Positions 16,893-36,200 of a stretch of 64,000 bases of DNA are shown piece by piece. Numbering within the stretch: position 1 is the first letter of the stretch; the number at the start of each line of letters is the position of its first letter. The DNA is taken from contig CAZNAA010000001.1 of assembly GCA_964571255.1 (NCBI GenBank), forward strand, positions 620,666 to 684,665, written 5' to 3'. A program made the translations under genes and the position numbers. The notes beneath the pieces were generated by a model. That model had not been told where the DNA came from. It did not search any database and saw only the letters and a list, made by a program, of their open reading frames with translations. The stretch is from an uncultured Gammaproteobacteria bacterium. Lineage in GTDB: Bacteria > Patescibacteriota > Microgenomatia > Levybacterales > UBA12049.

Positions 16893-18629
16893 TTAGACTT
16901 CTATGACAACAGGCAAAATCAAAGGTCGTCTTTTGAGAACTTTAAAGATATGTCGAGTCGCAATATCTCCAACGAGTTTTCTCAAATGGACCCAGTTGGT
17001 TACTTTGCCTTTTTGTTTTCCTAGTGCAAGCTGAATTTCTTTAGGAAGAGAAAGAGATAGAGTTTTTTGATCATTAGGAGAAAAACCTCTGGTAACAAGA
17101 GAGGGTGCATCGACTAATTGTCCAGTTGAAGCATTCACTTCAGCCATCACGATAAGAATTCCTTCTTTAGCAAGCTTTTCTCTATCTCTAAGTACATATT
17201 GATCTACTTCTTCACCTGACACGTGGTCAACAAAAACAGTTTTGACTTCAATTTTCTTTCCGAGTCGTGCAACTCCATCCTCAAAAATAATTTCTTGCCC
17301 GTTTTCCGGAATAATTTGATGCGTCTGATCATATCCCATGGCGGTTGCAAGGAGTTTGTACGCCATCATATGTTTGTAATTTCCACTAGTTGGCAGAACG
17401 TATTCTGGCTTGGTCAATGAGATCATGAGTTGTAAATCCTGCTGACTTCCGTGTCCTGACACGTGATAGACTGCTCCACCTGGTGTTGAATAGAGAATTC
17501 TGACTCCCTTTTTCGCAACTGTATCAATAAGAGAGGTAACAGACACTTCGTTTCCAGGAATTGGATCAGCTGACATCACAATCATATCTTTTGGAGTCAG
17601 TTTAATTTCTCTATGTTCTCCATTAGCAATTCGAGTGAGAGCTGAGTTCTCCTGTCCCTGAGATCCAGCAGCCAATAATACTAATTGGTGATCAGGAATA
17701 TGATTAATCTGATCCATCTCCACTTCCATTCCAGCTGGAATTTTCATATACCCTAAACTTGAAGCCACATCTTTGACTTTTAACAGAGATCTTCCGATAA
17801 AACACACCTTTTTATTCAATTTGATGGCAGCAGCAAGAGTTTGATTCCATCTGGCAATTTGTGAGGAATAAGTAGTTAAAATAAACTTTCCTTCACACGA
17901 CCGCATGGCATTCTCAATCGTTTGTGCCAATGGTTGCTCAGTTGGAGAATGACCTGGTTTTTCTGCACCTAAACAGTCAGAAATCAGACACATCACCCCT
18001 TTTTTCCCGGCTTCTGTATATCCTTGAAAATCAGATCCCTTCCCGTCCTCTGGCATAAATTCAAATTTAAAATCTCCCGTATGAAGTAAATTCCCTGCAG
18101 GAGTTTGGATAAAAAGACTCGCACTATCTGGAACAGAGTGAGTGACATGAATAAACGTCACCGCAAAACTACCTATTTTGACGGTTGGATTTGAAAATTC
18201 CACTGGTTTTACGACTGGTTTGAGGCGAAAATCCAACAATTTGGCGTTAGCAAGTTGAGCTGTAAAGGGTGAAGCATAGATAGGAAAAGTTGTTTTTAAT
18301 TGAGGAAGAACAAACGGAAGAGCTCCGATATGATCTTCATGCCCGTGCGTTAAAACCATTCCAACAATTTTTTTGTTGGTAGTCAAAAGATAGGAGATAT
18401 CTGGGAGAAGAAGATCTACTCCAAGCATGGTTTCATCGGCAAAACCAATTCCACACTCTGCCAGTAAGATTTCGTCTCCATATTCATAAACGTACATGTT
18501 TTTAGTTACGTCCTCAACGCCACCAAGTGGCATGAAAGAAACTATTTTTCGACTCACCTTTACTTCAGGCTTGAGTTTATAATGAGGTTTTTGTGGTTGA
18601 GATGAAACTAAGGGTTGTATTGGATCCAT
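16893..18629 (-). CDS. rnj: Ribonuclease J (metallo-beta-lactamase/beta-CASP RNase)
   Basis: HGHEDHIG motif, beta-CASP and C-terminal domain, 578 aa. Confidence 0.9.
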   Translation of the reverse strand: MDPIQPLVSSQPQKPHYKLKPEVKVSRKIVSFMPLGGVEDVTKNMYVYEYGDEILLAECGIGFADETMLGVDLLLPDISYLLTTNKKIVGMVLTHGHEDHIGALPFVLPQLKTTFPIYASPFTAQLANAKLLDFRLKPVVKPVEFSNPTVKIGSFAVTFIHVTHSVPDSASLFIQTPAGNLLHTGDFKFEFMPEDGKGSDFQGYTEAGKKGVMCLISDCLGAEKPGHSPTEQPLAQTIENAMRSCEGKFILTTYSSQIARWNQTLAAAIKLNKKVCFIGRSLLKVKDVASSLGYMKIPAGMEVEMDQINHIPDHQLVLLAAGSQGQENSALTRIANGEHREIKLTPKDMIVMSADPIPGNEVSVTSLIDTVAKKGVRILYSTPGGAVYHVSGHGSQQDLQLMISLTKPEYVLPTSGNYKHMMAYKLLATAMGYDQTHQIIPENGQEIIFEDGVARLGKKIEVKTVFVDHVSGEEVDQYVLRDREKLAKEGILIVMAEVNASTGQLVDAPSLVTRGFSPNDQKTLSLSLPKEIQLALGKQKGKVTNWVHLRKLVGDIATRHIFKVLKRRPLILPVVIEV

Positions 18630-18634
18630 ATGAG

Positions 18635-19810
18635 TTACCAGGAAGGTAAAAATTCTTTAATATTTGATTGATCTACCTTTACACTTTCTACTTTTCCCTC
18701 AACAATCATTCGTGCAACCTTTCGACACATGCCCTCAATCAGTCTTTCTAAACTTCGAATGCCTGAGTCAAATCCTAAAGGCCTAATAAGAAGCGGCCAA
18801 ACAGAATCATCCACTTGTAACTGAGGTTCTGATAATCCTGTTCCTAATCGCACTCTATTAAACAGATATTGTTTCGCAATGGTTATTTTCTCTTGATCTG
18901 TATAGGAGGGCATCTGGATGATCTCTAAACGGTCTAGAACTGCGGTTGAGATGTTTTTGGTATTATTTGCCGTTGCGATAAACAACACGTTTGAGAGATT
19001 TACTGGATAGTCAATATAATGATCGGTAAAAGCTGCATTTTGCTCAGGGTCTAATAACTCAATGAGAACTCCCATAATATCAGCCCGAGCATTATCAGCA
19101 ACTCTATCTAATTCATCAAGAAGAATCACAGGATTTTTTGTTCCTGCAACACTAAGTTTTTTAATAACGCTCCCTGGTTCTGCATCAGGATACGCTTTTG
19201 ACTGTCCTCTGAGGACTCGTGAATCTGCCATACCTCCAAATGGAATACGAGCAAACTTTCGCCCTAAGGCTTCAGCTATAGAAATTGCCAGGGTTGTTTT
19301 TCCTGTTCCAGCCAATCCAACAAGGCACAAAATAGGAGCATGAGAAATCGTGTCTTTTTTACCAGATTTGAGATTTAAAATAATCGTTGCTAAGTATTCC
19401 AAAATTCTATCTTTAATAGGGTCTAATCCATAATGATTCTTATCAAGAACTTGCTTGGCTTTAATCAAATCCAGTAAGTCCTCAGATTGCGTATTCCAAG
19501 GAAGTCCTAGTACCCAGGTAATGTATGAAGAAGTATTTTCGTACTCTAAAATATAGTTAGTACTCATATACCCACTACTGGCACGAACCAAAGCAAGGCG
19601 TGATACGCGCTCTAAAAGAGTTTGCTTTAAATCCGAAGGAAGCGTAGTTGATTCAACTCGCTCTCCTAATTTTCGAATTTGATCATTTGATTCTATCTTA
19701 TCATTTCCGTTTCCATTCGTTTGAATTTGTGGCACGTCAGTAGTACTCGTTGGAGAGGGGTCTAAAGGAGTTTGATGTGGCGCTTGAAACAGCGGATGAG
19801 TTGGATCCAT
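18635..19810 (-). CDS. Lon-like AAA+ ATPase lacking LAN N-domain and S16 protease domain
   Basis: LGLPWN, LDKNHYGLDPIKDRILEYLA, Walker A LCLVGLAGTGKTT, Walker B VILLDELD, LDPEQNAAFTDHYIDYPVNLSNVLFIATAN; ends right after AAA+ alpha-subdomain; start ATG 19810 (MDPTHPL) because ATG 19831 overlaps the -10. Confidence 0.75.
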   Translation of the reverse strand: MDPTHPLFQAPHQTPLDPSPTSTTDVPQIQTNGNGNDKIESNDQIRKLGERVESTTLPSDLKQTLLERVSRLALVRASSGYMSTNYILEYENTSSYITWVLGLPWNTQSEDLLDLIKAKQVLDKNHYGLDPIKDRILEYLATIILNLKSGKKDTISHAPILCLVGLAGTGKTTLAISIAEALGRKFARIPFGGMADSRVLRGQSKAYPDAEPGSVIKKLSVAGTKNPVILLDELDRVADNARADIMGVLIELLDPEQNAAFTDHYIDYPVNLSNVLFIATANNTKNISTAVLDRLEIIQMPSYTDQEKITIAKQYLFNRVRLGTGLSEPQLQVDDSVWPLLIRPLGFDSGIRSLERLIEGMCRKVARMIVEGKVESVKVDQSNIKEFLPSW

Positions 19811-19830
19811 ATATGTAATACTATACAGCA

Positions 19831-19858
19831 TTTATAAAACCGGAGCAAAATGAGTCAA
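19831..19858 (-). promoter_or_regulatory. Promoter TTGACT(19853-19858)-N16-TATAAA(19831-19836) for lon-like/rnj operon
   Basis: near-consensus hexamers on minus strand. Confidence 0.35.
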
Positions 19859-19867
19859 AGACTACTC

Positions 19868-22258
19868 TTAATAGTGGACTTTACGACGAGCTGAGGAGGA
19901 AGGAGATGAACTCCGTCCGTCCCGAGAAGCATTTTGTCTTTTAAGTTGTTCTGTTAACGGATGAAGTGGTGGTCTATCACTACTTGATCTCTCTGGTCTA
20001 GGTCCCCTGTATCCTCCACTAGCTGCTCTAGGTCCACGATCTCCACCACGTCTATCTCCTCCACGATCTGAATAAGGAGGGCGACTTGTGCCTCCACCTT
20101 CTCTTCGAGGTCCACGATCTCCACCACCACTACTTCGTGCTGGTCCTGTATCTTCACTATCTAAAAGCATAGTCAAATTAATTCGTCCTTGATCATCAAT
20201 TTCAACTACGCGCACCTTTACCATTTGTCCAAGTTGGACAACGTCTTCTGGACTGTTTACAAATTCTTTGGACATTTTGGAAACATGAACAAGTCCTTCT
20301 TTTCCAGGAAGTACCTCAACAAAAGCTCCAAAATTTAAGATTCGTTTTACTTCTCCTTCAAATTCTTCCCCAACCATTACTTCTCGCATCATGCCAGTAA
20401 CCCAATCAACTGCTTTTTGAACTGATGCTTCGTCCACTCCTGAGACCGTAACAGTTCCATCATCTTCAACATCAACCGTTGCACCAGTTTGAGCAATGAT
20501 ATTTTTAATCACTTTTCCTCCAGGCCCAATGAGTTCTCCAATCTTGTCAACGGGAATTTGGAGTGTTTCAATCTTTGGAGCATACATCGAAACTTCTTTT
20601 CGAGGCTCTGCAATCGTTTTTGTCATGGTCTCAAGAATTTGCATTCGAGCTGTCTTTGCTCGAGCAAAGATTTCAGCAATTTCCTCAACTGAAAGACCTG
20701 GAATTTTTACATCCAACTGAATTGCCGTAACTCCTGTGTCAGTTCCTGCTACTTTGAAATCCATATCCCCTGAGAAGTCTTCAAGACCAATAATGTCTGT
20801 AAGAAGCGCTGATGCACCATCAACTGACATTCGTCCAATCGAAATTCCTGCAACTGGCTTTAAAATGGGAACTCCAGCATCCATTAGAGCAAGAGTTGAT
20901 CCACAGGTTGATGCCATTGAGGATGATCCATTTTGGGAAAGAACTTCAGATACGAGTCTAATGGTATAAGGGAAGTCTTTTTGTGAAGGGATTACTGCTT
21001 GCAAAGCTCGTTCTGCAAGTGCTCCGTGTCCAATCTCACGCCGAGATGGAGAGCCAATTCTTCCTGCTTCTCCAACGGAGAAAGGTGCTGCGGAGTAGTG
21101 ATGGATATAGCGTTTTGACTCTTCACCTTCTGCTGACTCAATAAGAAGCTCCATACGAGGGGATCCAAGCGTTGCAATGGTTAGAGCCTGAGTAAGACCG
21201 CGTTGGAAAACAGCTGAACCGTGAGTTCGTGGAAGAACTCCAACTGTGGTAGTGATTTCTCGGATTTCATCCATTTTTCGTCCATCAGGTCGTTTAGATT
21301 TTTCAACTACATTTGATCTAATTTTTTTAAACATCAAATACTCAACAGCTTTGGATAGAAGTTTTTTATCCATAGTTGTATTTGGATCTGCCATTTTGGC
21401 ATCAGTAGAGATAGCAGTTAGCAAATCATCTGTCTCTGTTCCTGAGCCTTCTTTATTAGCCCTCGTTGCGATCAGTCCTTCAACCTCTTTGGCATAGCCT
21501 TTTTCAACAAATTTAACAGCATCCATAAGCGCTGTATTTTGTGGAACAGCTTGTTTTTTCTGTCCAACCTTTTTGACTAATTCTTCAATAAGTGAGAGAA
21601 TTTTTGCTGTTTCTGTATGAGCCATTTTTACTGCTTCAACTAACACTTCCTCAGAAACTTGAAGAGCTCCAGCTTCAATCATGTTGGTCTTATCTTTAAG
21701 TTGGGAGAAAACGATATCTAAATCCGAATGCTCTGCTTCACTTGCAGTTGGATTTGGAAGAAATTGTGACGAATTTCCTTCTTTTTCTGTTATATACCCA
21801 ATACGAACTGCTCCAATTGGTCCACTCCAAGGAATACTAGAAATAGCAAGAGCTGCAGAAACGGCATTAACAGCAACGATATCTGGCTCATGTTCTGAAT
21901 CAACAGATAAAACGGTTGCAATCACTTGTACTTCCTGTTTGAATTCTTTGGGAAAAAGAGGACGAATAGAGCGATCAATAAGACGGCCAATCAGAATAGA
22001 TTCATCTGTTGGACGACCTTCCCGTTTTACCCAACGACTTCCTTTAATGCGTCCGCCTGCATAAAGTTTTTCAACGTATTCAACACTGAGTGGGAAATAA
22101 TCAATATCATCACGTGCTTTACCCTCAACAACGGTCACAAGTACGACAGTATCCCCAAGAGTTGCGAGAACTGATGCGGTTGCTTGTGGAGCAAGAAGCC
22201 CTGTTTCTAATGTTAATGTTTTCCCTGCAAATTCTGCAGATACTGAGGTCTTAGCCAT
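19868..22258 (-). CDS. pnp: Polyribonucleotide nucleotidyltransferase (PNPase) with ~110-aa Arg/Gly/Ser-rich C-terminal tail
   Basis: two RNase PH domains, KH and S1 domains; tail RGPRREGGGTSRPPYSDRGGDRRGGDRGPRAASGGYRGPRPERSSSD. Confidence 0.95.
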   Translation of the reverse strand: MAKTSVSAEFAGKTLTLETGLLAPQATASVLATLGDTVVLVTVVEGKARDDIDYFPLSVEYVEKLYAGGRIKGSRWVKREGRPTDESILIGRLIDRSIRPLFPKEFKQEVQVIATVLSVDSEHEPDIVAVNAVSAALAISSIPWSGPIGAVRIGYITEKEGNSSQFLPNPTASEAEHSDLDIVFSQLKDKTNMIEAGALQVSEEVLVEAVKMAHTETAKILSLIEELVKKVGQKKQAVPQNTALMDAVKFVEKGYAKEVEGLIATRANKEGSGTETDDLLTAISTDAKMADPNTTMDKKLLSKAVEYLMFKKIRSNVVEKSKRPDGRKMDEIREITTTVGVLPRTHGSAVFQRGLTQALTIATLGSPRMELLIESAEGEESKRYIHHYSAAPFSVGEAGRIGSPSRREIGHGALAERALQAVIPSQKDFPYTIRLVSEVLSQNGSSSMASTCGSTLALMDAGVPILKPVAGISIGRMSVDGASALLTDIIGLEDFSGDMDFKVAGTDTGVTAIQLDVKIPGLSVEEIAEIFARAKTARMQILETMTKTIAEPRKEVSMYAPKIETLQIPVDKIGELIGPGGKVIKNIIAQTGATVDVEDDGTVTVSGVDEASVQKAVDWVTGMMREVMVGEEFEGEVKRILNFGAFVEVLPGKEGLVHVSKMSKEFVNSPEDVVQLGQMVKVRVVEIDDQGRINLTMLLDSEDTGPARSSGGGDRGPRREGGGTSRPPYSDRGGDRRGGDRGPRAASGGYRGPRPERSSSDRPPLHPLTEQLKRQNASRDGRSSSPSSSARRKVHY

Positions 22259-22310: not shown

Positions 22311-22580
22311 TTAGTCTTTCATTCCTAATTTCTTTAGTATATCACTCATTCGAGTTTTATCAACCTTTTCTAAAAAGTTAATAAGACGACGTCTTTTTGC
22401 AATCATTGAGAGAAGCCCACGTCGACTATGGACATCATGTGCATGAAGTTTCAAATGTTCTGCAAGTTTTGTGATTCTGGTTGTAAGAAGGGCAATTTGT
22501 ACTTCTGGACTCCCGGTGTCTCCTGGAGTTGTTTGGTATTGTTTAATTACGTCTTGTTTAATTGTTGGTGCTAGTGGCAT
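22311..22580 (-). CDS. rpsO: 30S ribosomal protein S15
   Basis: MPLAPTIKQDVIKQYQTTPGDTGSPEVQIALLTTRI...HSRRGLLSMIAKRRRL; start at second ATG (22580); ORF-track start 22601 lies inside the promoter. Confidence 0.9.
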   Translation of the reverse strand: MPLAPTIKQDVIKQYQTTPGDTGSPEVQIALLTTRITKLAEHLKLHAHDVHSRRGLLSMIAKRRRLINFLEKVDKTRMSDILKKLGMKD

Positions 22581-22762: not shown

Positions 22763-23893
22763 TTAGACATTTGAGGAGCCTTTATATACTTTAGGGGTTA
22801 GCCAATCAGCAGGAGGAGTATTTTGTCCTTTATCACTTTGTGGTCTACTTTCCTGTTGGACTACTTGTTCCTCAACTACATCAGAAACTGCAGGAACTGA
22901 AAACGCTAAATCTGCAAAAGGATCTCGTTGAGGTTTTGGTTGGGTTGGTTGTCCACCTTGAGTATTTTGATTACTTTGCGATCTTGGTTGCTGTTGCTGA
23001 CGATTTTGATTCTGTTGTTTTGGCTGTTGGTTTCGTTGCGTATTTTGTCCAATTTGATTTTGTTGCTGTAGCTTTGATTGAGCTGGCTGATTTTGTTGTT
23101 TTGGTTGCTGCATTAAACTCATAAAGTCATCTCTGGCTTCAGTATGAAGAGCACGAGCTTGTTCCCGAGTTGCTCCTTTTTTCATGAGTTCTGCTGCCAT
23201 TTCAAAAGCAAGAAAACTCGTATTATCGTTTTGGAAATTATTTGTTCCGTCAATAATTCCAGAAAGGAGGTTTTGGGCTGCGTCTTGATCAATAGAGGTT
23301 TCATATCCAAGGGTTAAAATAAGATCAGCAACTTGCTCAGAAAGAGAAGAGAATCGACCTGAAACTAAATTAATATCGCCATATCTTTCATTACTGTCAT
23401 TATTATCAATATTTACAATCGTTGCATCTGTTAATGAGTCAGCAGCAATAGATGTATACATATCATCGTTATAGGACACCCCGATGGTGAGCAATAATTG
23501 AATAACTCCTGTTCCGCGGGTAAACTTAACACTTTGTTCATCAAAACTCAAACCAATCTCTCCAGCTTTGACTACAATGTTGAGAAAGTTATCATCCATG
23601 GTATAGGAAACGTTCTCAATTTCTCCGTCTTTATACGGGAAGGAAACAATCAAATCGCCTTCATTTGAAGCAGGCTGAGTGTGTACTTGATCAATACCTA
23701 CTAACGAGCCAACAGCAACGGTTGGTTCTGATCCAGTAATAACTTGGGGGGATTTTTGCAAACTACGCAAAACAAGAGATAAAGAAAGAGCTGCAGCCAT
23801 CTGGTCAACGGTTGGATTTTTTCCTACCAAAACCACGATTTTTTCGCTTTTCTCAATGGTACTTTTAAGATTTTGCAGTAATTGTTCGTCCAT
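22763..23893 (-). CDS. DHH/DHHA1-like (NrnA-like) protein with degenerate catalytic motifs and ~120-aa Gln/Asn-rich C-terminal tail
   Basis: N-terminal IVVLVGKNPTVDQMAAALSL resembles NrnA motif I region but lacks DGD; DHH replaced by DQVH; tail QQPKQQNQPAQSKLQQQNQIGQNTQRNQQPKQQNQNRQQQQPRSQSNQ. Confidence 0.5.
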   Translation of the reverse strand: MDEQLLQNLKSTIEKSEKIVVLVGKNPTVDQMAAALSLSLVLRSLQKSPQVITGSEPTVAVGSLVGIDQVHTQPASNEGDLIVSFPYKDGEIENVSYTMDDNFLNIVVKAGEIGLSFDEQSVKFTRGTGVIQLLLTIGVSYNDDMYTSIAADSLTDATIVNIDNNDSNERYGDINLVSGRFSSLSEQVADLILTLGYETSIDQDAAQNLLSGIIDGTNNFQNDNTSFLAFEMAAELMKKGATREQARALHTEARDDFMSLMQQPKQQNQPAQSKLQQQNQIGQNTQRNQQPKQQNQNRQQQQPRSQSNQNTQGGQPTQPKPQRDPFADLAFSVPAVSDVVEEQVVQQESRPQSDKGQNTPPADWLTPKVYKGSSNV

Positions 23894-23909
23894 ATGTAGC
23901 CCTTATTTG

Positions 23910-25337
23910 CTAACTATGGGATAGTATCACATCTCCAGGCTGGATGTCAAGAGGCGTGGAAAGCAGAATTCCTGCTTCTTTTTTCTCCTCAACTTTGGTT
24001 ACTTGGTCTTTTCCTACTCGAAGAGACGAAATGTGTGTTTCGCCAACGATTTCCTCTCCTCTCATGACTCGAATTTTATCTCTTTGGGCAACGCGTCCTT
24101 CCATAACTCGAATGCCAAAGGCAAAACTTTTCTCAAACGGAAATTTGGCCTGCACTTGAGAAACTCCATAAATTTCCTCCATTCCAGCTAGCTGCTTACC
24201 TTCTAATGCATCAGATAACTCATCAATCATTTCATAAATAATCGTATAGTTTTTAGCCAAAACCTTCTCAGTTGAAGCTAGTTTTACAACTTCTGGTCGA
24301 ATTCGGACGTTGAAACTTACGACAAATCCTCCAACTGATTTGGCCATTAAAATATCTGCCTCACTTACTTCTCCTGTTTTAGCGGAAACTACTTTAATCT
24401 CCTTAGGAAGTGAGGCCATAATAGCCTCAAGTGAACCTTTAGTATCAGCAATAAGGATAATAAAAAGACCGGTATTATCAGCATTAGCTTGATACATTGT
24501 TGGGTTTTCCTCAATAACCGGTACTAGTTCATCTTTTGTAGCTTGAATAACACTTCCCACTTCCAAAACTTCACTCATGCCTAAAATCTCTACCCCGTCT
24601 CCAATAATCGCTTCCTGAAGTTGTTTTCCCGTCTCATCCATCAAAGATCTCACCTTAAATTCATGCTGATCTGCATATAACACATCACGCACGGTGAGTT
24701 TGCCATTTTTGACAATAATAGTTGCCTTTGGACCTGATTTGGGATCTCTTTTTGATTCAATTACAACGGCTTTAACAGGAGCGGTAAGGGAAATATCTTT
24801 TGGAGACTGGAATTCCCAGACAAGTAAGATAAGATCTAGTAATTCTTTAATATTATGTCCTGTAGTTGAAGCTACTTCAATAACCGGAGTGTCTCCTCCT
24901 AATCCTTCCATCAACACGCCTTCTCCACTTAACTGTTGTTTCACTCTATCTACATTTTTAGTTGGGAGATCTGATTTGGTTAATACTACGATATAAGGAA
25001 TTTCAGCTTCTTTTAGAAGTGCGATACTTTCCTTCGTTTGAGGCATAACCCCATCATTGGCTGCCACAATTAAAAGACCGATATCAGCTGCATTAGCTCC
25101 CTGACTTCGCATCTTACTAAATGCAGCATGACCTGGAGTATCGATAAAAGTCATTTTTGAAGATTTTCCTTCATGCTCAATACTAATTGAGGACGTTCCA
25201 ATTTTTTGAGTAATTCCTCCGTGTTCTCGAGCTGCAATAGAGGTTTTTCGAATAGCATCAAGAAGTGATGTTTTTCCGTGATCTACATGGCCAAGGACCG
25301 TAACGACAGGGGCAAATGAGTGTTGTTTCTGTTCCAT
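23910..25337 (-). CDS. infB: Translation initiation factor IF-2, minimal form (G domain + C-terminal domains, 475 aa)
   Basis: VVTVLGHVDHGKTSLLD, DTPGH, TKSD GTPase motifs. Confidence 0.9.
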   Translation of the reverse strand: MEQKQHSFAPVVTVLGHVDHGKTSLLDAIRKTSIAAREHGGITQKIGTSSISIEHEGKSSKMTFIDTPGHAAFSKMRSQGANAADIGLLIVAANDGVMPQTKESIALLKEAEIPYIVVLTKSDLPTKNVDRVKQQLSGEGVLMEGLGGDTPVIEVASTTGHNIKELLDLILLVWEFQSPKDISLTAPVKAVVIESKRDPKSGPKATIIVKNGKLTVRDVLYADQHEFKVRSLMDETGKQLQEAIIGDGVEILGMSEVLEVGSVIQATKDELVPVIEENPTMYQANADNTGLFIILIADTKGSLEAIMASLPKEIKVVSAKTGEVSEADILMAKSVGGFVVSFNVRIRPEVVKLASTEKVLAKNYTIIYEMIDELSDALEGKQLAGMEEIYGVSQVQAKFPFEKSFAFGIRVMEGRVAQRDKIRVMRGEEIVGETHISSLRVGKDQVTKVEEKKEAGILLSTPLDIQPGDVILSHS

Positions 25338-25431: not shown

Positions 25432-26601
25432 TTACTCTTTAGTACCGTCTTCAGGAGTTTCAGGAGCTACTTCTTCAGTAACTGGGGATTCTTCTGCACT
25501 TTCAGAAATGTCTTCAGTAGCTTCTACTTCCTCTTTTGGAGCTTCTGAAGCTGTTTCACTTTCAGGTTCTACTTTTTCTGCTGCTGGCTTACTCTCAGCT
25601 ACTTCCTCAACTGACTCTTCTACTACTTCTTCTTTTTTCTCTTCAACTGGAGGAAGTCCTGCTCCTTCAATTTCAATTCTATATCCAGTTAGTTTTGAGG
25701 CTAATCGAACGTTTTGGCCATCTTTTCCAATAGCTAGTGACAATTGATCTTCAGGAACGGTTACTTTTGCTGTTTTTTCCTCTTCATTAATCGTTACACT
25801 AACGTCTTTTGCAGGAGCTAAGGCTTGAGTAATAAAGGACTTATTGTCATCAGTCCATTGGATAATATCAATTTTTTCTCCATTTACTTCCTGCAAAACT
25901 GCCTGAACTCGAACTCCTTTTTGTCCAACACAACTTCCCACAGGATCAATTCCTGGTTGGTCAGAAAACACTGCCATTTTAGTACGAGTCCCTGCTTCTC
26001 GAACAATGGTTCGAACCTCAACACTACCTGACGCTACTTCTGGAACTTCTCGTCTAAATAGTCCTTCAATAAGTCCAGTGTGAGCTCTGGAGACAATAAC
26101 TTCTTCGCCTCTCGTTCCTTCTCGAATTTCTACCAAGTAAAAAGAGAGACGCTGATTTAAGTAATACTTATCAGACCCAACTTGCTCTGATGGAGGCATG
26201 AGCGCTTCAGCTTTTCCAATATCAACAATGATATTTGGTCCTGCAAAGCGAAGAACCATTCCAGCAACAACTGTTCCCATTTTGATTTTGTAATCACTAA
26301 TGATTGCTTCTTTTTCTTTTTCTCTAATTTGTTGGAGGATTACTTGTTTAGCAGTTTGTGCAGCAATGCGGCCAAATCCTGGAGGTGTTACGTCTTTTCC
26401 TTGATGAAGAATTTTTGCTTCCCCTGTACTTTGATTTAATTCAGCTTCATATTCTTCAAGCTCAATTTCTGGATTATCTTTTCTATATGCTGCAAGAATA
26501 GCACTTTTAACCGTATCAAGTACGACTTTAGCATCGACTCCCCTCTCGGTAGCGACTTGGTTTAAAGCTAGTGCAAATTCTGAACGTTGTATAGCTGGCA
26601 T
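25432..26601 (-). CDS. nusA: Transcription termination/antitermination factor NusA with acidic C-terminal tail
   Basis: S1 and two KH domains (GPNIIVDIGKAEALMP, GSCVGQKGVRVQAV, LAIGKDGQNVRLASKLTG); start ATG 26601 (MPAIQRSEF). Confidence 0.9.
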   Translation of the reverse strand: MPAIQRSEFALALNQVATERGVDAKVVLDTVKSAILAAYRKDNPEIELEEYEAELNQSTGEAKILHQGKDVTPPGFGRIAAQTAKQVILQQIREKEKEAIISDYKIKMGTVVAGMVLRFAGPNIIVDIGKAEALMPPSEQVGSDKYYLNQRLSFYLVEIREGTRGEEVIVSRAHTGLIEGLFRREVPEVASGSVEVRTIVREAGTRTKMAVFSDQPGIDPVGSCVGQKGVRVQAVLQEVNGEKIDIIQWTDDNKSFITQALAPAKDVSVTINEEEKTAKVTVPEDQLSLAIGKDGQNVRLASKLTGYRIEIEGAGLPPVEEKKEEVVEESVEEVAESKPAAEKVEPESETASEAPKEEVEATEDISESAEESPVTEEVAPETPEDGTKE

Positions 26602-26608
26602 GTGAGTA

Positions 26609-26617
26609 ATTATAGCA
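26609..26617 (-). promoter_or_regulatory. extended -10 TGcTATAAT 7 nt upstream of nusA ATG 26601
   Basis: minus strand tcTGcTATAATtactcacATG. Confidence 0.5.
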
Positions 26618-26754
26618 GAAGAGACCCGAGCATTCAATCCGTACATGAAAGAATTGACAATAAAAGTCCTATAGTTTACAATTGGAACATGGCAAAGATA
26701 GCTTTCTTAAGCTATTTAGTCGTTCTTTAACAGTAATACATGGGTTTTTCATAT

Positions 26755-26805
26755 CTAGCTTAGGAGATAAGGTTATACCTTTTATAGCTTTTTTTCCTAA
26801 GCTAG
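26755..26805. repeat. 11-bp perfect inverted repeat CTAGCTTAGGA / TCCTAAGCTAG with 29-nt AT-rich spacer at the AT-rich/GC-rich boundary
   Basis: arms 26755-26765 and 26795-26805. Confidence 0.6.
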
Positions 26806-26820
26806 TAGCAAGGGAATCAA

Positions 26821-26842
26821 TACGCTACCACCTGGTAGCGTA
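26821..26842. promoter_or_regulatory. 22-bp perfect palindrome TACGCTACCA-CC-TGGTAGCGTA 25 nt upstream of ATG 26868 (operator-like or 5'-UTR stem)
   Basis: 10-bp arms, GC-rich like the downstream gene; followed by AGGAGG RBS. Confidence 0.55.
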
Positions 26843-26867
26843 TCTCATCCAGCAGGAGGTAGTCACC

Positions 26868-27467
26868 ATGGCGATCAACGGAAAGTTTGTTGCGTCGGCG
26901 ACGCTACTCGTTAGCCTCTTTCTCTTAGCATTACTAGGCGGAAAGAGCGGAGTGGGGTCAGAACACTACATCCCGCGTCATCAGAGTATTATTCTCATCG
27001 CTACACCCGCACTTGAGCGGGGAGAGTGCTTCGAACTTCGTTTGGAGATCGAGGAAACCTACTCCCCGACCGAACGGATGTATCACACACGAACCTTACT
27101 CACGAAGGAGGATTGGTGCAAGCTGATTGGCGCGGAGCCAGAGCTTGTCTACCAGGTCGGCAAAAATATCCGATCCGCCTCTTCTCAAATATCGATAGAT
27201 GGAGGAACGGTACGGATCGGAGGGCTTCTGAGGCCATTTGGTGCTCAGGAGCACTACAGCGTCACATACCAAGTGACGATAGATACCAGCTGGAAGTGGC
27301 AAGAGAGCTTCGGGTCCAAGGGGCCCGAATACACTCTTTTCCGCATGGGCGATAATCAAAACTCGCCCCCGGCAGATTACATACTCGAAATCACGGAACC
27401 TGAAGGAGTCTCCATTCTCACTGATGAGGGGAGGTATTCCAACTTCGTGATGTCCAAGTCACGCTGA
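26868..27467 (+). CDS. Hypothetical secreted protein encoded in a GC-rich islet (~199 aa, N-terminal signal/TM)
   Basis: AGGAGG 8 nt upstream; MAINGKFVASATLLVSLFLLALLGGKSG...; local GC ~55% versus ~38% flanks. Confidence 0.55.
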   Translation: MAINGKFVASATLLVSLFLLALLGGKSGVGSEHYIPRHQSIILIATPALERGECFELRLEIEETYSPTERMYHTRTLLTKEDWCKLIGAEPELVYQVGKNIRSASSQISIDGGTVRIGGLLRPFGAQEHYSVTYQVTIDTSWKWQESFGSKGPEYTLFRMGDNQNSPPADYILEITEPEGVSILTDEGRYSNFVMSKSR

Positions 27468-27657: not shown

Positions 27658-30033
27658 TTATTTAGAAATCGTATAGATAATTTCTTCATTCTCAACTGAA
27701 AATACTACCTTACTTCCCCGTTGCAGCATATCTTGCAGTTTCATTTTCGCTAAAGCATCCTCAATCGTATCCTGAATATAGCGTCGTAAAGGCCTGGCTC
27801 CAAACTGATTATTAGCTCCATGTGTAGCAATAAAGCCCAAGATGCTTTGATCAAAGCTAACCAAAAAATCTTGTTCTTCAAGGTATTTTGTTAACGATGC
27901 AAGCATGAGCTTGGTCACTTCTATTTGTTCCTGCGCAGAAAGAGGTTCAAACATGATGACATCATCAAATCGATTCAAAAGTTCAGGAGTATACAACCCT
28001 TGTGTTTGCAAAAATTCTAACAGATCTGTTTTCAACTGTTCTGCTTGAGTTTCTGCTTGAATTTTTTCTCGAATAAATTCTGCCCCTGCATTTGAAGTTG
28101 CAATAATGATTGCATTTTTAAAGGACACAACTCTTCCTAACGCATCTGTTAGTCTTCCATCGTCAAGTACCGGAAGGAGAAGATTTAAAACATCTCTGTC
28201 TGCTTTTTCAAATTCATCAAGAAGAATAAGACTAGAGGGATGATCCCGAACAGCTTCTGTTAATTCTCCTCTTCCATTATTTCCTCCAGGCATGCCAATC
28301 AGTCTCGCAACTCCTTCTGCTCCTCTAAATTCACTCATATCAAATCGAAGCATTTTCCCTTCTCCTCCAAAATAGACTGAGGCTAAGGCTTTAGCTGTTT
28401 CTGTTTTTCCAACTCCGGTTGGACCTAGAAACAGAAACGAAATAGGTTTTTTAGGAGGTTCTATATTTGACCGAATTCGCCTCACTGCCTCGGCAATTGC
28501 CACAGTTGCGTGCTGTTGACCAATAATTCTCTCTTGTAACTTGTCTTCAAGGGACAAAAGAGTTTTCTTTTCTTCTTGGCTTGGAGGAAGAGCCGTCGCA
28601 ACCCCTTTTTGTCCAACCGTTTGAGCAACATCTGATTCTTCTAAGAATTGTACTTGTCTTGTCTGGTGGACCCGTTGCCTGACATATCGGATACTGTCCT
28701 CAAGAAGGTTTATCGCACTTCCCGGAAGAACAACGTCTTGGGCATAAGAATCAGAGAGGCGAATTGATTCACGTAAGGCTTGATAACGGATTTTTACTCC
28801 AGTTCGTTTCTCTAAGTCTTCAACTTTTTCACATAAGATATGGAGTGCCGTTTGTTTATCAGGCTCTGAAATAGTAATAACCGTAAAAGCCTCACGAGCT
28901 GGACTATTTTCTAAGTATTGCTTATAGGCAGCTTGGGTCATAGTTGCAATAACAGGAAGTTTCCCATTTTTTAAATAAGGAAGGAGCGCTTCGGCAATAT
29001 TTACCTGGAAAGTAGGATTTCCCAGAATGTTTTCTAAGGCTGGAATATACAAAAGTACGTTATAAGAATGAGACACTTCTTGAATAATGGTTTGTAGCCT
29101 CGTTTCCAAATCAGCTCTATTAGCTGCTCCTGCCAAAAGTTGTCCTACCATTAACTCCAAAATTCGTCTGAAATTTAACTTTTCGGTAAGATTTCCAGAT
29201 TCTGTATCAAAAGCAAAGGCTTTTATGATACTCTCCTTCCCTACACCAATATCTCCAACCAGTAACACGTTATTATTCTCTGGTTTCTGAAGCGTTCCAA
29301 TTAACTCTTCATATTTTGCCTCTCTACTAAATAAATGAGGCCTTTGATAAGAGGAATAATAAAATTCTTGCGTATACTTTTGCGTTTCTGGGGTCCAGCC
29401 AGAAACTACTGCGTCTCCTATTCCTCTGCCACTGACCCGTACTCGAAACGGTTGTGGGTTTTCTTCTTCTGGATGAGCCATTCGAACCCAAGAGAGAAGA
29501 ACAAGGAGATCCTCTCGTTTTAAGTGGAGATTAAAAAGGGTTTGGCTTTGTTCCTCAATAAGCAACAAATAAGAAGCTAATAAATCCATTCGTAAAATGT
29601 ATTTACCCTTCACTTCTGTTGCTAATTCATAGGCAGTACGTAATAGTTGTTGCTGATCCACAAATATCTGAGGAATCATCTGTTTCTCAACTCCAAACCG
29701 GGTGAGAAAGAACTGCCCTTCAACCGTATTTAAAATATTGATTATTCCCCTTGTTCCTTTTTGATAGGCCAAAAGAGCATCAAGCGTACAACACTGGGTT
29801 AAATCAGAAGGATTTTCTGGAATCGTTTTATCAGGCATCATATGGCCTATTTTTCCAAAAACAAACAGCTCAGACGTAATTAAAAATTGAGTTAAAAAAA
29901 GCAAATAAGGAAAAAGGACTTTAGTCTCCCAAGAAAGATAGGCCAAATAGCTTAGTATTAAGACGCCTACTCCTCGAACAATAAGAAATTGCCAGGAAGT
30001 ATAGACTTGATAAATATGGGCAAAATATTTCAT
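27658..30033 (-). CDS. Hsp100/Clp-family ATPase paralog: N-terminal 2-TM anchor + Clp_N-like repeats, degenerate AAA D1 (Walker A GDIGVGKES, Walker B lost), intact D2, no M-domain
   Basis: TMs FLIVRGVGVLILSYLAYLSW / VLFPYLLFLTQFLITSELFVFG; D2 [55 protein letters not shown]; start overlaps upstream gene stop (ATGA). Confidence 0.85.
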   Translation of the reverse strand: MKYFAHIYQVYTSWQFLIVRGVGVLILSYLAYLSWETKVLFPYLLFLTQFLITSELFVFGKIGHMMPDKTIPENPSDLTQCCTLDALLAYQKGTRGIINILNTVEGQFFLTRFGVEKQMIPQIFVDQQQLLRTAYELATEVKGKYILRMDLLASYLLLIEEQSQTLFNLHLKREDLLVLLSWVRMAHPEEENPQPFRVRVSGRGIGDAVVSGWTPETQKYTQEFYYSSYQRPHLFSREAKYEELIGTLQKPENNNVLLVGDIGVGKESIIKAFAFDTESGNLTEKLNFRRILELMVGQLLAGAANRADLETRLQTIIQEVSHSYNVLLYIPALENILGNPTFQVNIAEALLPYLKNGKLPVIATMTQAAYKQYLENSPAREAFTVITISEPDKQTALHILCEKVEDLEKRTGVKIRYQALRESIRLSDSYAQDVVLPGSAINLLEDSIRYVRQRVHQTRQVQFLEESDVAQTVGQKGVATALPPSQEEKKTLLSLEDKLQERIIGQQHATVAIAEAVRRIRSNIEPPKKPISFLFLGPTGVGKTETAKALASVYFGGEGKMLRFDMSEFRGAEGVARLIGMPGGNNGRGELTEAVRDHPSSLILLDEFEKADRDVLNLLLPVLDDGRLTDALGRVVSFKNAIIIATSNAGAEFIREKIQAETQAEQLKTDLLEFLQTQGLYTPELLNRFDDVIMFEPLSAQEQIEVTKLMLASLTKYLEEQDFLVSFDQSILGFIATHGANNQFGARPLRRYIQDTIEDALAKMKLQDMLQRGSKVVFSVENEEIIYTISK

Positions 30034-30415: not shown

Positions 30416-33280
30416 CTATGCAGCTGCAGAAAGTGTCGCACCCGTTGCTGGAGGTTTCGGAGCATCAGGCTGTGACTGATTAAACTCTTGCGTCGGTGGT
30501 AAATTCCACCCAGAAGAAGAAGCAGCAGGAGGAGGAGGTACAGCTGATACAGGGGATGAACTCATAACTGGTGCACCTTCAGTTATTGGAGGCAGCGATG
30601 ATACAGGAGAAGGGGTAGAAGCGAGTAGAGACGGAGGTACCTCTACTGGAGGCATTTGAGATGTGTCAGCAAGATTCTTTTCACTCATTGGATCAATTTC
30701 ATCTAGTTTTGCATCAGGAGTTGGAGGGATTTCTTCTCCTTGAACAGGAGAGGCATCCGGTTTTGCACCACCTGCACTAGCAGAGCCTTTAGCAAAGGTG
30801 AATTCTGATTTTGTAGCGTCGTATCCAACTAAAATAACATCAGGTGAGGCAAATGTTTTCCCAATAAGCTTGACTGCGATGGGATTTTCAATAGAGGTTT
30901 GAATCAACCGTCGTAACGGACGAGCTCCATAGACTGGATCATATCCTTCCTTGGCAAGCTCCATGAGAGCAGATTGGGTAATTTGGAGATCAAGTCCTTG
31001 CTCTTGAAGCAGATGGGCTGTTTTGGCAATATTATTTTTGGCAATTGAGGCCATATCAGCTTGTGCTAGAGGCTTAAAGACAACTACTTCATCAAATCGA
31101 TTCAAAAGCTCTGGCTTGAAAAACTTATGCAACTCATCAGAAAGAAGTGAATTAAGGTCTGCAAAGTCTTTCTGATACTCCTCCTCAGTTGCATGAGGTT
31201 TGCTCATTTGCTGCTGGATCAAAGCACTTCCGATATTTGAAGTAGCAATAATAATGGTGTTTTTGAAAGAAATAGTATTTCCTTTGTTATCCGTAAGTCT
31301 CCCATCCTCAAGCAGTTGCAGTAAAATATTAAAGACATCAGGATGGGCTTTTTCAATCTCATCAAGAAGCACAATGGAGTACGGTTTTCGTCTTACTGCT
31401 TCTGTTAATTGACCACCCTCTTCATAGCCAACATAGCCTGGAGGAGCTCCGATAAGCTTGGCTACTTCATGTTTTTCCATATACTCACTCATATCAAGTC
31501 GAACAAGTGCGTCTTCTTTGCCAAAAAGAATTTCAGCTAGGGTCTTGGCCAACTCTGTTTTTCCAACTCCAGTAGGGCCGAGGAAAATAAATGAAGCAAT
31601 CGGACGAGTAGGACTTGCGAGTCCAATTCTTCCTCTTTGAACTGCCTCTGTTACTGATTGGACAGCTTCTTCTTGCCCAATAAGACGTTTGTGGATAAGC
31701 TCAGCCAAGTGAAGTAGTTTTTCTCCTTCATCTTCAGTCAATTTAGTAATAGGAATCCCTGTCCAACTACTTACAACCTTTTCAATATCTGATTTGACTA
31801 CTGCTGTATCTGTTTTTTTACCTGTTGAGTGTTGCAGCTTAACATCTGCTGCAGCCTCATCCATCAAATCCACTGCTTTATCTGGCAAAAATCTCTCTCC
31901 AATATATTTTTTTGACAAATGGACTGCGTCTTTTAAGGTTTCATCTGAAAAAGTCACACTATGAAACTTCTCATATTTTGGCTTAATGATTTGAAGCATC
32001 TCAACTGCAACTTCCTCAGTTGGTTCGTCAACTATAATTGGCTGAAAGCGTCTTTCAAAGGCTTTATCCTTTTCAAAATGCTTCCGATACTCACTGGTTG
32101 TTGTCGTTCCAATAAGCTGCAACTGTCCCCGAGCTAGATAGGGTTTAACAATATTTGAAGCATCCAGTGCTCCTCCCTCATCTCCTGCTCCAATAAGAGT
32201 ATGAATTTCATCAATGAAAAGAATGATCTCTCCACTCGCCTCAATGGTTTCTTTAATAACATCTCGAAGTCTCTCCTCAAACTCTCCCCGATGAGATGCT
32301 CCGGCCACAAGAGAGGCAAGATCCATTTGAATAATTCTTTTACCTGAGAGATCTTTTGGAGCAGTTCCTCCCACAATTGATTGAGCAAGGCCTTCAACAA
32401 TAGCCGTCTTTCCAACTCCTGCCTCTCCAATGATAATAGGATTATTTTTCGATCTTCTGAGTAAAATATGCACCATTCGCTCAATTTCTTTATCTCGTCC
32501 TGCAATCGGATCTAATTTTCCGTCTTTGGCTTGTTGAGTGAGATCAATTCCATATTTCTCCAAAACTGATTTTTTTCCCGTGTGATAGGTGGGATTTTTA
32601 GCAAGAGACTGAACAAGCTTATCTTTTTGAATTCCCTTCTCACTGAGTGCTTTATTCATCGATTCCAAAGAGGCAAGAGCTACGAGGAGATCTTCAGGTG
32701 AGATAAAGGCAACTCCTCGTCCTTTCACGTCCTTATATGCAGCATCAAAAACTGATTTGGTTTGATCACTCAGTTTTGGCTGCCCTGAAAAATTCCCTGG
32801 AATTTGTTTCGCTTGGATTTCTTTAGAAAGGGCTCCAACATCTACTGATTCTTTTTGCAAAAGAGCAAAAATTTCTTGATCAAAAAGAATTCCATATAAA
32901 AGCAAATCTGGCTCAATCTTTTCTTTTTTCAATCTTGTTGCTTCTTCTTGAGCATGGGTCAAGGCTTGGGAAGATCTCGCATCTAGATGAGAAAGAACTG
33001 ACATGTCTTGCTTGGTTGCAGGATCTAAGGAAGAAGACGTTGAGGCAACAGGTGTTTGTCCTATAGGAGCTTCTGGATCAAGAGGAGTTGGATCATTAGG
33101 AACAGGAGATACAGGCGTACTCGTTGCACCTGAAGAAGCTAATGGAGCTTGAGGTACAGGAGTAGCTACTGGCTGAGCAGATGGTGTTTGTCCGTCTTCT
33201 GGTTTATGAAATAAATTACCAAACATAGTTCCATTATGGACATAAGTTTTGTCAAAAAGCAACTTATAACCTGTCTTCAC
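30416..33280 (-). CDS. ClpA/ClpC-type Hsp100 ATPase (two Clp_N repeats, canonical D1 and D2, no long M-domain) with Pro/Ser/Thr-rich N- and C-terminal extensions
   Basis: D1 [32 protein letters not shown]; D2 [56 protein letters not shown]; 954 aa; overlaps upstream gene by 17 nt. Confidence 0.9.
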
Positions 33281-36200
33281 TTACAGGAGCTTTTTCCTCT
33301 GTTTTACTTGGTGGAATCTCTTCTTTTATCTCCATGTGTTGCACCTTCATCTCAGGCTTTTTCTCGTCACGTCTGGCAGGAAGTTTTGATTCTTCCTCTT
33401 GCTCTTTTTTATCGACATCCTCAAGTACATCTTTGGCTGCTTCTTGTTTGGCCTTCAAATAGCCAACAATTTCTGTTTGTGAGAAGCCTCCAATAAGAAG
33501 GAACGGCAGAATACCTGATACTTTTTTCATTCCTTCCTGTCTTTTTTCATTGACTGGAGAGGAAAGAAGGTTAATGGCCTCAGTAATCTCTTCAATATCT
33601 TGACTGATAAATTGAGCCTTTGGTACTTTTTGTCCTTGTCTAATTGGTTCATCGAGATTTTCATAGTTTTCCTTCCAGATTTTTTTGACTGCTTCATAAT
33701 CCTCAAGTGAGACGTTTTGAACTCTATTCACAACGGGGAAGGAGACATCTTTTTTAATCAGTGAGGTATTGGGTTTTTGCTGGCGTTGTTTGACCAACAA
33801 ACTATAAATAAATCCAGCTAACTGATCACCCTTGTCTTTGGCCTTTACTAGTTCCTCTTTGACTTTCTCAACGGTAACTACAGGCTGTACAGGTGTAACC
33901 GTTTGGATAAGTTGAGTAGCAAAAGGTGTTTGTTGTTGAGCCTCAAGACGGATTTGTTGGGTGAGATTAAAGACTGTTTCTTTACTCGCTTCTCCTCTTC
34001 CCTCAATCATATCCAAAAGTTGCGTGGCAAGTTTGTTGCCTTTTACTTGCTCTTCTTTAATAAAGGTAAGAAGTACTGTGTAGGACTCTTTCTCTTTTTG
34101 ATCAGTAATAAGCTCTGGTTTAAGAAGTTTCTCAACAATCTCTGTAACTTTTTGTGACTGAACTGGAGCAGGAGTAGATTGGACAGGAGTAGTTTGTTTT
34201 TGAACAAGTGTAGAAAGAACCGATTGGAGAGTTGTACTTCCTCGTACTTCTTTTATCGTTTGAGTTACTTGCTTAATCAGATCTTGCGTAATATTTTGAG
34301 GTGATTGGAGAATAGGGAGAAGTTGAGTAGCTAACTGATCACCTTTTTGGGCATCTTTGACAATCGTTTCTCGAATAGTCATAGCTGTTTCTTTTTCTTT
34401 TTGAGGAAGCAAATCAGGTTGAGCTAGGTGTTGGATAAAGGTAGCAACATGATTTTCTGTAATTTCCGTTGTCCCTTGTTGCAAATACGTATTGGTAATG
34501 TAGTTTACAACTGATTGATCTGTTTTATTAACTTGGCTCATTTGCTGAGTGAGAGAATTCATAACAGATGGAGAAAGAGATTGCGTTTGGGTAATAAGTG
34601 AGAGCAGTTGACGAGCTAGTGGAGTACCCAACACTGCTTCTTTCGTAATCGTTTCTTTCAAAACTTCTATATTTTGCTTGTCAGAAATGTTGGTAATCAC
34701 CTCAGGATGTGCGAGTTGGTTAATAATAGTAGTTAAGGCTTGCTCTGTTGAAACAGCTTGGGTACTACTCGACTGATCAGTTTTGGAGGAGATATATTGA
34801 TTAAGAGTTGTGGCAAAAGAGTTTCCCGCAACAGATTGCTGGCTTACGGTCTCTTTGACTTTCTCATAGACTGTTTTTTCGGTTATTTGAGTAACTCGCT
34901 CAGGTGTTGCAATGTTATTTAAGATATTAATTAACACTGGTCTGTCGTCTGAAACAGTAACAGGAGTTGAAACAATAGCACTGGATGCTTGCAATACGAC
35001 ATTGGCAAATTGATTCCCTCTTTGACTTTCATTTCTTAACGTCTCTCGAATCCTTTCAAATTGTTGTCTTTCAACAGGAGTTCTAGCCAGTTGAGGATTT
35101 GAGATTTGTTGGAGATTTTGAACAGACACAGGAGTACTCGTTTGCGTTGTTGTTGTCGTTTTTATTTGATTAGTATCGAACATGGCAATATCTCGCATAG
35201 TAGGAATTGCTACTTGGATTTGTTTGAGAACTTCATTTAACCTACTCACCTCTGTACTTCGAATAACAGGAGTTGATTGCTGCTGTTGCACTGAAACCGT
35301 TTGTCTTAATGGCCTTGCTTGAGGCAGTGACTTGGCCTGAGAGGCTGGAGTAACCGATTGAACGATAGGTTCTGAGAAAGGAAGTTGCAGCTTTCGTCCA
35401 AACGGCAAACTGAGAGCCTTTCCAGTTGGGAAGGAAGGAGGAGTAGGTGGAGGTGGTGGAGATAGTGGTTGACGATTAAGCATAGTATTTGAGAGAGCAA
35501 GAAACTGCTTCATTCCTGGAGCATCATTTAAAGCAAGACTAAATAGATAATCAAGAAAAATACGAAGCAAGATAAAGGGCAAAATCATAACAGCCCACAG
35601 CATCATGAGACAAATAGTGTAGAGAGCAAACGTTTCAGGAAGATTCACGCTACTGGCAAGACCAATAGCTTGTCTTGGTCCTCCTAGTAAAATATTCACT
35701 GCTGTTTGATAGACAGGAGTTGCCGTTTTCGTAACAATAGTTCCTGTTGGTTGATAAGAAAAAAGCGGAATGGTTGATTGCCACAAAGAGACAAGTCCTG
35801 CAAGGAGTACGGCAAAAAGAGGGCCATATAATACCCACCGGAAAAACTCCCCTATCCAAATTTTAGCGGTATTTCGAATCGGCCAGTAGAAAAGAAGCAG
35901 AGGGAAAATGGGAGAGATAATAATAAAAAACCACAATACTATTTTTCGAATAATAAGCATGGCAGCCATGGCATAATAGGTAACTGCAGTAAGTCTGGTT
36001 AAAAGAAGCGTCATGAACGCTGACTCATCAGTAAAGGAGTCTACTCGCTTGTACCCGATAAAGTCTTCATATTTAAATGCAATATTTAGCAAATTTTCTT
36101 GACTAATTGTTTGACGCACTGCAGCAGTGGCGGGATCTGGATTTCGCAGGAAAAACCCTTGGGTAATATCAGTTAGTTGATAAATGATCTGGACCATTCC

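Follow-up and report, generated by a model that had tools for sequence, protein, structure and literature searches.

A degenerate NrnA-like protein with a conserved C-terminal peptide is encoded directly after infB in Levybacteria and related lineages

The gene described here, termed X, lies on the minus strand at positions 22763..23893 of a 64,000-nucleotide stretch of a Levybacterales genome (assembly GCA_964571255.1, contig CAZNAA010000001.1, positions 620,666 to 684,665), which we call the window. X is an ATG-to-stop open reading frame (ORF), the stop codon being counted in the range, and encodes a degenerate NrnA-like protein of 376 amino acids. All coordinates are those of the window, and the features lie on the minus strand unless stated otherwise. 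We think it probable, although far from secure, that X is a non-catalytic descendant of an NrnA-type protein and acts in translation or RNA processing as an adaptor with a tethered peptide. Public data contain a protein identical to X and 642 close relatives with the labels Levybacteria or Patescibacteria, from which the window was assigned to a bacterium of the Candidate Phyla Radiation from the Microgenomatia. A decaying pseudogene and a mis-called ORF were both considered for X and rejected, because every locus keeps the reading frame, the MD.Q.LQ start and the terminal peptide described below.

The active site of X was compared with that of B. subtilis NrnA, where two metals are bound by H20, D24, D26, D80, H103, H104 and D156 (PMC5593865). 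The columns were mapped with HMMER alignments to NrnA and to the T. maritima phosphodiesterase TM1595 (TmPDE), of which the D80N/D154N mutant fixes two columns, and the residue frequencies were taken from 79 X orthologues from Levybacteria genome loci. The equivalent residues in X are, in the same order, G24, T28, D30, G138, N164, N165 and G216. Six of the seven are replaced and D30 alone, the second Asp of the DxD, is kept. With the ligand roles assigned in NrnA (PMC5593865), X retains one of the four M1 ligands and neither of the two at M2.

In motif I (residues 24-30, GKNPTVD; 23804..23824), the H20 and D24 equivalents are gone and the D26 equivalent is kept as D30. Position 28 is occupied by S, T or N and never by D, and D30 was present in 79/79 orthologues. 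The catalytic Asp of motif II is Gly138 (23480..23482) in a column that was aligned to D80 of TmPDE and to N80 of its D80N mutant, and this Gly was again found in 79/79. When motif III was aligned to TmPDE and NrnA, the sequence NIDNNDSN was found (residues 161-168; 23390..23413), where DHH has become D-N-x. D163, the Asp of DHH, is retained in all 79 orthologues and N164 in 77, whereas position 165 is variable, with a K in 53. Motif IV (residues 212-220, GIIDGTNNF; 23234..23260) was aligned to GIATDTGFF of TmPDE. Its catalytic Asp, D156 in NrnA and D154 in TmPDE, corresponds to Gly216 in X, and the orthologues have A (64), S (8), G (6) or E (1) at this position.

The original prediction, which was made from the DNA letters and a list of their ORFs, had stated that X lacks the DHH and DGD metal ligands. 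This is correct for the six replaced residues but not for D30 and the DHH Asp D163, which are retained and invariant. An alignment with intact DHH motifs had been set beforehand as refuting the prediction; no such motif was intact in X, and the relationship to the DHH proteins was detectable. Judged from the sequences, X is a pseudoenzyme in the operational sense, i.e. its catalytic residues were lost and the protein is nonetheless maintained by strong purifying selection in a family of very large size. The predicted pseudo-enzyme is therefore in line with the dismantled metal site, the absence of a DHHA1 domain and the purifying selection. With both metal sites stripped of ligands and DHHA1 lost, we consider it a better than even case that X no longer is a two-metal phosphoesterase; its lack of catalysis is what we infer from these losses.

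A different state of the site was found in the Gottesmanbacteria-type sister subfamily. Here, the equivalents of H20, D26, D80 and H104 are kept in 116-120 of the 120 members, with an Asp at position 138 in 116/120, whereas T, R and A are found at the equivalents of D24, H103 and D156, respectively. The loss of the active site is graded across the family and therefore the architecture, the tail peptide and the synteny do not depend on the site residues. Since the site decays by degrees while the architecture is constant, the shared function should not reside in the old catalytic chemistry. This is the strongest argument of the analysis.

The DHH fold of the N-terminal domain (residues 1-245; 23159..23893) was assigned with AlphaFold, Foldseek and a family profile searched against the PDB. 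The AlphaFold model of X has a predicted local distance difference test (pLDDT) score of 80-97 across residues 1-245. When the model was searched with Foldseek, TmPDE 5o25 was found at E=1e-12 with a probability of 1.0, and TmPDE, NrnA and Rv2837c spanned 1e-12 to 1e-10. A RecJ-like protein, the catalytic domain of GdpP and the family II pyrophosphatases were matched as well, with E values of 1e-12 to 1e-5 overall. At the sequence level, a phmmer search of X against the PDB sequences found S. aureus NrnA (8iu7) at 3e-8. With a profile of 34 family members, TmPDE (5o4z) was found at 1.5e-10 and mycobacterial NrnA homologues at ~1e-8. The predicted resemblance to the N-terminal region of NrnA-type DHH proteins was thus recovered by sequence, profile and structure.

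The Pfam DHH model (PF01368) matched X at E=0.014 with 16.1 bits, which is under the gathering score of 28.1, and the match covers 196 residues for a model of 125 positions. Less degenerate relatives, which are linked to X at E ~1e-28 or better, exceed the gathering score with 43-50 bits. On this sequence and model evidence X is a member of the DHH superfamily by fold and homology. It is not an NrnA by its motifs, by its lack of a DHHA1 domain or by the curated score, as the NCBIfam NrnA model (NF053633) gave 25.3 bits against a cutoff of 350 and matched residues 171-291 only.

The N-terminal domain contains a family-specific, beta-rich insertion of ~48 residues (80-127; 23513..23656), recognised from the Pfam span, the predicted strands and the conservation. 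It reads GDLIVSFPYKDGEIENVSYT...LNIVVKAG... (written also SFPY...EGEIEKVSY...LNIVVK) and is placed between the canonical strands beta2 and beta3, with predicted strands at residues 81-84, 92-100, 103-110 and 123-126. The alignment of 34 X-family sequences has 59 invariant columns, and the insertion ranks among the most conserved segments of the family.

All residues of X after 245 are predicted to be disordered, and in the longer relatives this part is of low complexity until the terminal motif. A DHHA1 domain was not hit by Pfam in X or in five relatives. The tail of X (residues 246-376) contains 28% Q, 7% N and 9% P. It had been described in the original prediction as ~120 residues of Gln/Asn/Pro repeats. 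The Q-richness is real, but no tandem repeats were found at the DNA level of the X gene, and the conserved peptide at the end had been overlooked.

The peptide comprises residues 360-373 (PPADWLTPKVYKGS; 22775..22816) and ends 3 residues before the stop. It was recognised by its invariant alignment columns and has the consensus PPxDW[LF]xPK[VI][YF]KGS, in the Levybacteria-type alignment PPxDWLTPKVYKGS. No other segment is as strongly conserved across the family. Each of the 80 species-level genome loci has the peptide, and so do 120/120 members of the Gottesmanbacteria-type subfamily. Among the best 150 cluster representatives, [DE]W[LF]xPK[VI][YF] was found in almost every full-length member, down to an identity of ~30% in the N-domain. 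In total, 445 of the 454 full-length members (98%) carry it, at a median distance of 6 residues from the C-terminus. When the other reading frames of the window and of ~1.2 Mb of Levybacteria flanking DNA were searched, the peptide was not found, and X is its sole carrier there.

The N-terminal domain and the peptide are connected by a disordered Q/P/R-rich linker (residues 246-356; 22826..23158) with a pLDDT <50. In X, the linker has 36% Q+N, 20% charged residues and 9% Pro. In 428 relatives, it was 18-293 residues long with a Q+N content of 2-52% (median 23%), a median of 13% Pro and of 22% charged residues, and some of these linkers were rich in P/A or R/D and not in Q/N. Since the length and the Q/N content vary freely and only the presence of the linker is conserved, it most simply acts as a spacer.

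The tail had been predicted to be prion-like, and a rival explanation is that the Q/N-rich tail forms condensates by which X nucleates a ribonucleoprotein body. This would agree with the 36% Q+N of the X linker and with the disordered tails of two neighbours, the acidic tail of NusA and the Arg/Gly-rich tail of PNPase, which recall the condensate-forming scaffolds of RNA decay. However, with Q+N contents from 2 to 52%, lengths from 18 to 293 residues and a richness in Pro and charges, neither composition nor length was conserved in the 428 relatives, although a dedicated prion predictor was not run. As read from the alignments, the linker is not a conserved prion-like domain, and selection acts on the terminal peptide rather than on the composition. 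We regard a condensate function as highly improbable.

For the adaptor, which remains our preferred reading, we propose that the folded N-domain would be the body of the protein, possibly oligomeric like NrnA, and that the remodelled, Asn/Asp-lined pocket perhaps still binds a small polar ligand. In NrnA, the DHHA1 domain binds the nanoRNA or pAp substrate with its GGGH and RxRxR motifs. In X, its place is taken by the linker of arbitrary length and composition, which would be an entropic tether. The terminal peptide would then dock, as a short linear motif, on a partner that is co-expressed with X and works in translation, transcription or RNA turnover. Candidates for this partner are the ribosome, NusA, PNPase, RNase J, the conserved neighbouring AAA+ proteins and the X domain itself in trans, and also IF2, despite the negative model described below.

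Such an arrangement has parallels in known systems. Cdc45, a subunit of the eukaryotic CMG helicase, has a RecJ/DHH fold without nuclease activity and is kept as a structural or adaptor subunit. In contrast to X, it is a eukaryotic protein of the RecJ-like branch that has kept a DHHA1-like domain and lacks a tethered peptide at its end. The C-terminal peptide of the archaeal and eukaryotic ribosomal P-stalk recruits translational GTPases, and short microdomains in the C-terminal scaffold of RNase E bind PNPase. Like these proteins, whose place is likewise in translation or RNA decay, X consists of a folded domain, a flexible low-complexity linker and a short conserved C-terminal peptide, but no sequence similarity to them was found when the X peptide was compared with the PDB sequences. 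The closest relatives are NrnA and NrnA' (B. subtilis NrnA, S. aureus Pde2, Rv2837c/CnpB, MSMEG_2630 and TM1595), which share the DHH-domain fold and a detectable homology with X. Unlike them, X is devoid of the six site residues and of DHHA1 with its GGGH, and has gained the insertion of ~48 residues, the disordered linker and the C-terminal peptide.

Several observations weigh against an adaptor without catalytic function. The docking of the peptide is suggested by its conservation alone. In the AlphaFold model of X alone, the peptide was not docked on its own N-domain and had a pLDDT of 47-58, and the comparison of the peptide with the PDB sequences gave no match even at E<=10. IF2 as a partner was modelled by fusing it to X, on the basis of an unpaired alignment of 12 IF2 and 50 X homologues. 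Here, the X domain was folded and IF2 was reasonably folded with blocks mostly at 70-90 pLDDT, but the peptide reached only 29-37, below its value in X alone; this is a weak test, given the shallow IF2 alignment and no predicted aligned error (PAE). IF2 is therefore not supported as the peptide partner by the modelling. In addition, the position after infB may simply have been inherited from a nusA-infB-rbfA-nrnA' operon without a functional link to IF2. Finally, the pocket residues D30, N161, D163, N168, T217 and N219 of X are invariant. Asn and Asp are still able to ligate Mg2+, and X may have an altered catalytic or ligand-binding activity.

The last point leads to the explanation that X still is an enzyme with an altered chemistry. 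It might be a hydrolase that works with one metal or with none, or a phosphatase whose substrates are so small that DHHA1 is not needed. The pocket is polar and conserved in Levybacteria, when N164 is counted with the six residues above, four of the seven site residues are conserved at 116-120/120 in the Gottesmanbacteria type, and public pipelines call the relatives phosphoesterase, nanoRNase or pAp phosphatase. On the other hand, of the M1 and M2 ligands known from NrnA only a single one, at M1, is left in X (PMC5593865), the DHHA1 domain with the substrate-binding motifs GGGH and RxRxR is absent, and the database names are automatic transfers from Pfam or COG. Moreover, the pocket differs between the two subfamilies, with G138 in one and D in the other, N164 versus R, and a variable residue versus H, whereas architecture and synteny are identical. 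Because of this difference, pocket chemistry should not be the shared function. An enzyme of altered chemistry is, in our view, unlikely.

The same pocket could have been kept for ligand sensing. X would then bind a nucleotide such as pAp, a dinucleotide, (p)ppGpp or c-di-AMP without cleaving it and would modulate the tethered peptide, which refines the adaptor model. The Asn/Asp-lined pocket of X is conserved together with F220, which lies in the motif IV stretch equivalent to DTGRF, whose aromatic residue in NrnA and Rv2837c forms a stack with the base of the substrate (PMC5593865). The difference of the pocket between the subfamilies speaks against this explanation too, and we hold a ligand-sensing pseudoenzyme to be quite unlikely.

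The genomic context of X was analysed in 80 Levybacteria genome loci and in nine distant members that were examined one by one. In the window, the minus-strand order is two ClpB/ClpC-like AAA+ genes, nusA, infB, X, rpsO, pnp, a Lon-like AAA+ gene and RNase J. The predicted order nusA-infB-X-rpsO-pnp was confirmed with the window ORFs and Pfam. Wherever the contig extends far enough, nusA-infB-X was found in 80/80 Levybacteria loci, and the order there is ClpB-like, nusA, infB, X, rpsO, pnp, Lon-like AAA and RNase J. In 9/9 distant members, infB is directly upstream of X and nusA before infB, so that the synteny survey called for in the original prediction gave a uniform answer. Downstream of X the distant members have either rpsO-pnp or rmuC, and the invariant unit is nusA-infB-X. 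In one distant subfamily (L081 10714-12390, L082 4472-6148), X is followed by rmuC and an intact recJ with DHH, DHHA1 and RecJ_OB, and this canonical DHH nuclease is encoded two genes from the degenerate X.

The gap between infB and X ranges from a few to ~80 nucleotides in Levybacteria and from a 20-nucleotide overlap to 70 nucleotides in the distant members. In the window, the junction has 16 nucleotides (23894..23909) with a Shine-Dalgarno-like AAGGG, as seen by inspection of the sequence and a terminator scan. No terminator-like site was found in this junction or in the spacer between X and rpsO by the promoter and terminator scan, in which the counts of such sites were not above those in shuffled sequence. 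X would be co-transcribed with infB and is probably translationally coupled to it. The Rfam scan of the whole window found nothing, and the G+C content is ~39% throughout.

A DHH protein at this position is already known. The NrnA' clade, which includes MSMEG_2630 and Rv2837c, is located in nusA-infB-rbfA-nrnA operons and is co-transcribed with infB (Srivastav et al. 2014, PMC4081065). Like NrnA', X is encoded downstream of nusA-infB, whereas rbfA, which belongs to the neighbourhood of nusA, infB and rbfA that marks the NrnA' clade, is not in the nusA-infB-X cluster. X descends from an NrnA-type DHH phosphoesterase, probably of the NrnA' type, and the simplest history is that rbfA disappeared from the operon and X, as an nrnA' descendant, kept its position. 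The original prediction had placed X in the slot of rbfA/truB. X indeed follows infB, but NrnA' homologues were already known from the nusA-infB-rbfA-nrnA operons.

RbfA and TruB, whose genes are usually found between infB and rpsO, have the same cluster position as X and unrelated folds. This raises the possibility that X functionally substitutes for RbfA, or for Era or Der, in the maturation of the 30S subunit where these factors were lost. X occupies the slot where rbfA would follow infB, and a loss of rbfA and der, and for the most part of era, is reported for the Microgenomatia (PMC12641178). In the window, rbfA and truB were absent among the ten candidate ORFs that were scanned, the other ORFs being left unscanned. 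However, the fold of X is DHH and not KH, and in mycobacteria NrnA' and rbfA share one operon; because they coexist there, the presence of X in the slot does not imply a replacement. In two distant loci truB was found a few kb away from X, which indicates that the operon was rearranged rather than the gene substituted. From these sequence comparisons, a substitution of RbfA by X appears very unlikely.

A narrower version of the adaptor reading concerns IF2. The infB gene of the window (23910..25337) encodes a short IF2 of 475 residues that begins at the G domain, as judged from the ORF and from homologue lengths, which were 472-513 residues in all 120 homologues listed and 473-534 residues in 75 loci. 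Since IF2 is short and starts at the G domain across the homologues, the N1 domain and the linker are missing in this lineage. In E. coli, the N-terminal N1 domain of IF2 with its linker binds NusA and so forms a bridge between a transcription and a translation factor (PMC12297416). In both cases a small module on a flexible linker is encoded in the nusA-infB operon, in E. coli within IF2 itself; a functional parallel between X and the E. coli IF2 N-domain is a speculation based on this analogy. X may accordingly be imagined as a lineage-specific adaptor of the translation-initiation or small-subunit machinery of Microgenomatia, whose peptide docks on the ribosome or a factor. X would then supply in trans the tethered domain that canonical bacteria have in cis at the N-terminus of IF2, and in these reduced genomes it would make up for the missing RbfA, Era, Der and IF2 N-domain. 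We put this forward as a tentative and rather doubtful idea. The scaffolding role in ribosome biogenesis or RNA decay that had been predicted for X is reasonable, but is deduced from the operon context and the linker-peptide architecture.

The neighbours of X were assigned from the ORFs and the Pfam domains. The nusA gene (25432..26646) encodes a NusA that lacks AR1/AR2 and ends in a disordered, acidic tail, as seen from its ORF and the Pfam domains of orthologues. The tail (25432-25644) is E/K/A-rich with a median of 69 residues across 78 loci, and the PNPase tail carries the opposite charge. The rpsO gene for S15 (22311..22580) probably starts at the second Met, giving 89 residues (MPLAPTIKQ...) in agreement with the 88-89 residues of the orthologues, while the longer ORF starts at 22601. 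An extended -10-like sequence, TGcTATAAT, ends at 22590, ~9 nucleotides upstream of the start at 22580; if this promoter is real, the rpsO mRNA would be leaderless or nearly so. The pnp gene (19868..22258) encodes a PNPase with two RNase_PH domains, KH and S1 (Pfam) and an R/G/P-rich C-terminal extension of ~95 residues. The extension (19868-20161) is disordered and has a median of 80 residues across 64 loci, of which 58 carry the motif HP[LIM]xx[QE][LFM]. Half of the loci (32/64) have a basic-aromatic ending such as ...RRKxHY, and RFSR is another common ending. Together with the X peptide, the PNPase tail motif suggests, at the level of sequence patterns, a network of short motifs borne on tails in this gene cluster.

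Further downstream, the Lon-like AAA+ protein (18635-19831; 398 residues) has the AAA and Lon lid domains and no protease domain. Most Levybacteria loci keep its gene at this place, with pnp and RNase J as neighbours; RNase J itself (16893-18629) was assigned by the neighbourhood survey and Pfam. Upstream of nusA are the tandem ClpB/ClpC-like AAA+ genes (27658-30033 and 30416-33280). The 791-residue ClpB/ClpC-like protein has a hydrophobic N-terminus, a possible membrane anchor, and a clear Pfam AAA match in the second AAA+ module only. No Pfam match at E<=1e-4 was obtained for the ORF of 1,106 residues at 33264-36584 or for an ORF of 261 residues on the plus strand (26682-27467), which lies between nusA and the ClpB-like gene.

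When the N-domain of X was used as query, 1,999 clusters at 50% identity were found at E<=1e-10 and 4,054 at E<=1e-3. At least the Levybacteria and Gottesmanbacteria have members, and many members are named 'DHH family phosphoesterase' or 'nanoRNase/pAp phosphatase' by the NCBI and JGI pipelines. These names are automatic transfers from a Pfam or COG match and, going by the site residues, the enzyme label is almost certainly wrong for the Levybacteria-type X. In the literature that connects NrnA or DHH proteins with the operon genes or with the Candidate Phyla Radiation (CPR), no account of the X family was found. X thus represents an undescribed and very widespread NrnA derivative with a new architecture, while a DHH protein in this operon slot was already known.

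The enzyme labels on the Levybacteria-type X would skew metabolic reconstructions of nanoRNA, pAp and c-di-AMP turnover in these organisms. The CPR bacteria (Patescibacteria) have unusually small ribosomes, and many assembly factors that were supposed to be indispensable are absent (PMC12641178). The X family is very large and strictly conserved; at least two lineages of Microgenomatia encode it within their core nusA-infB operon, and the terminal peptide of the family provides a testable handle. If the narrower reading, in which X compensates for lost factors of initiation or 30S maturation, is true, a dead nanoRNase would have been recruited into the core of the gene expression machinery of a large bacterial radiation, as a component new to it.

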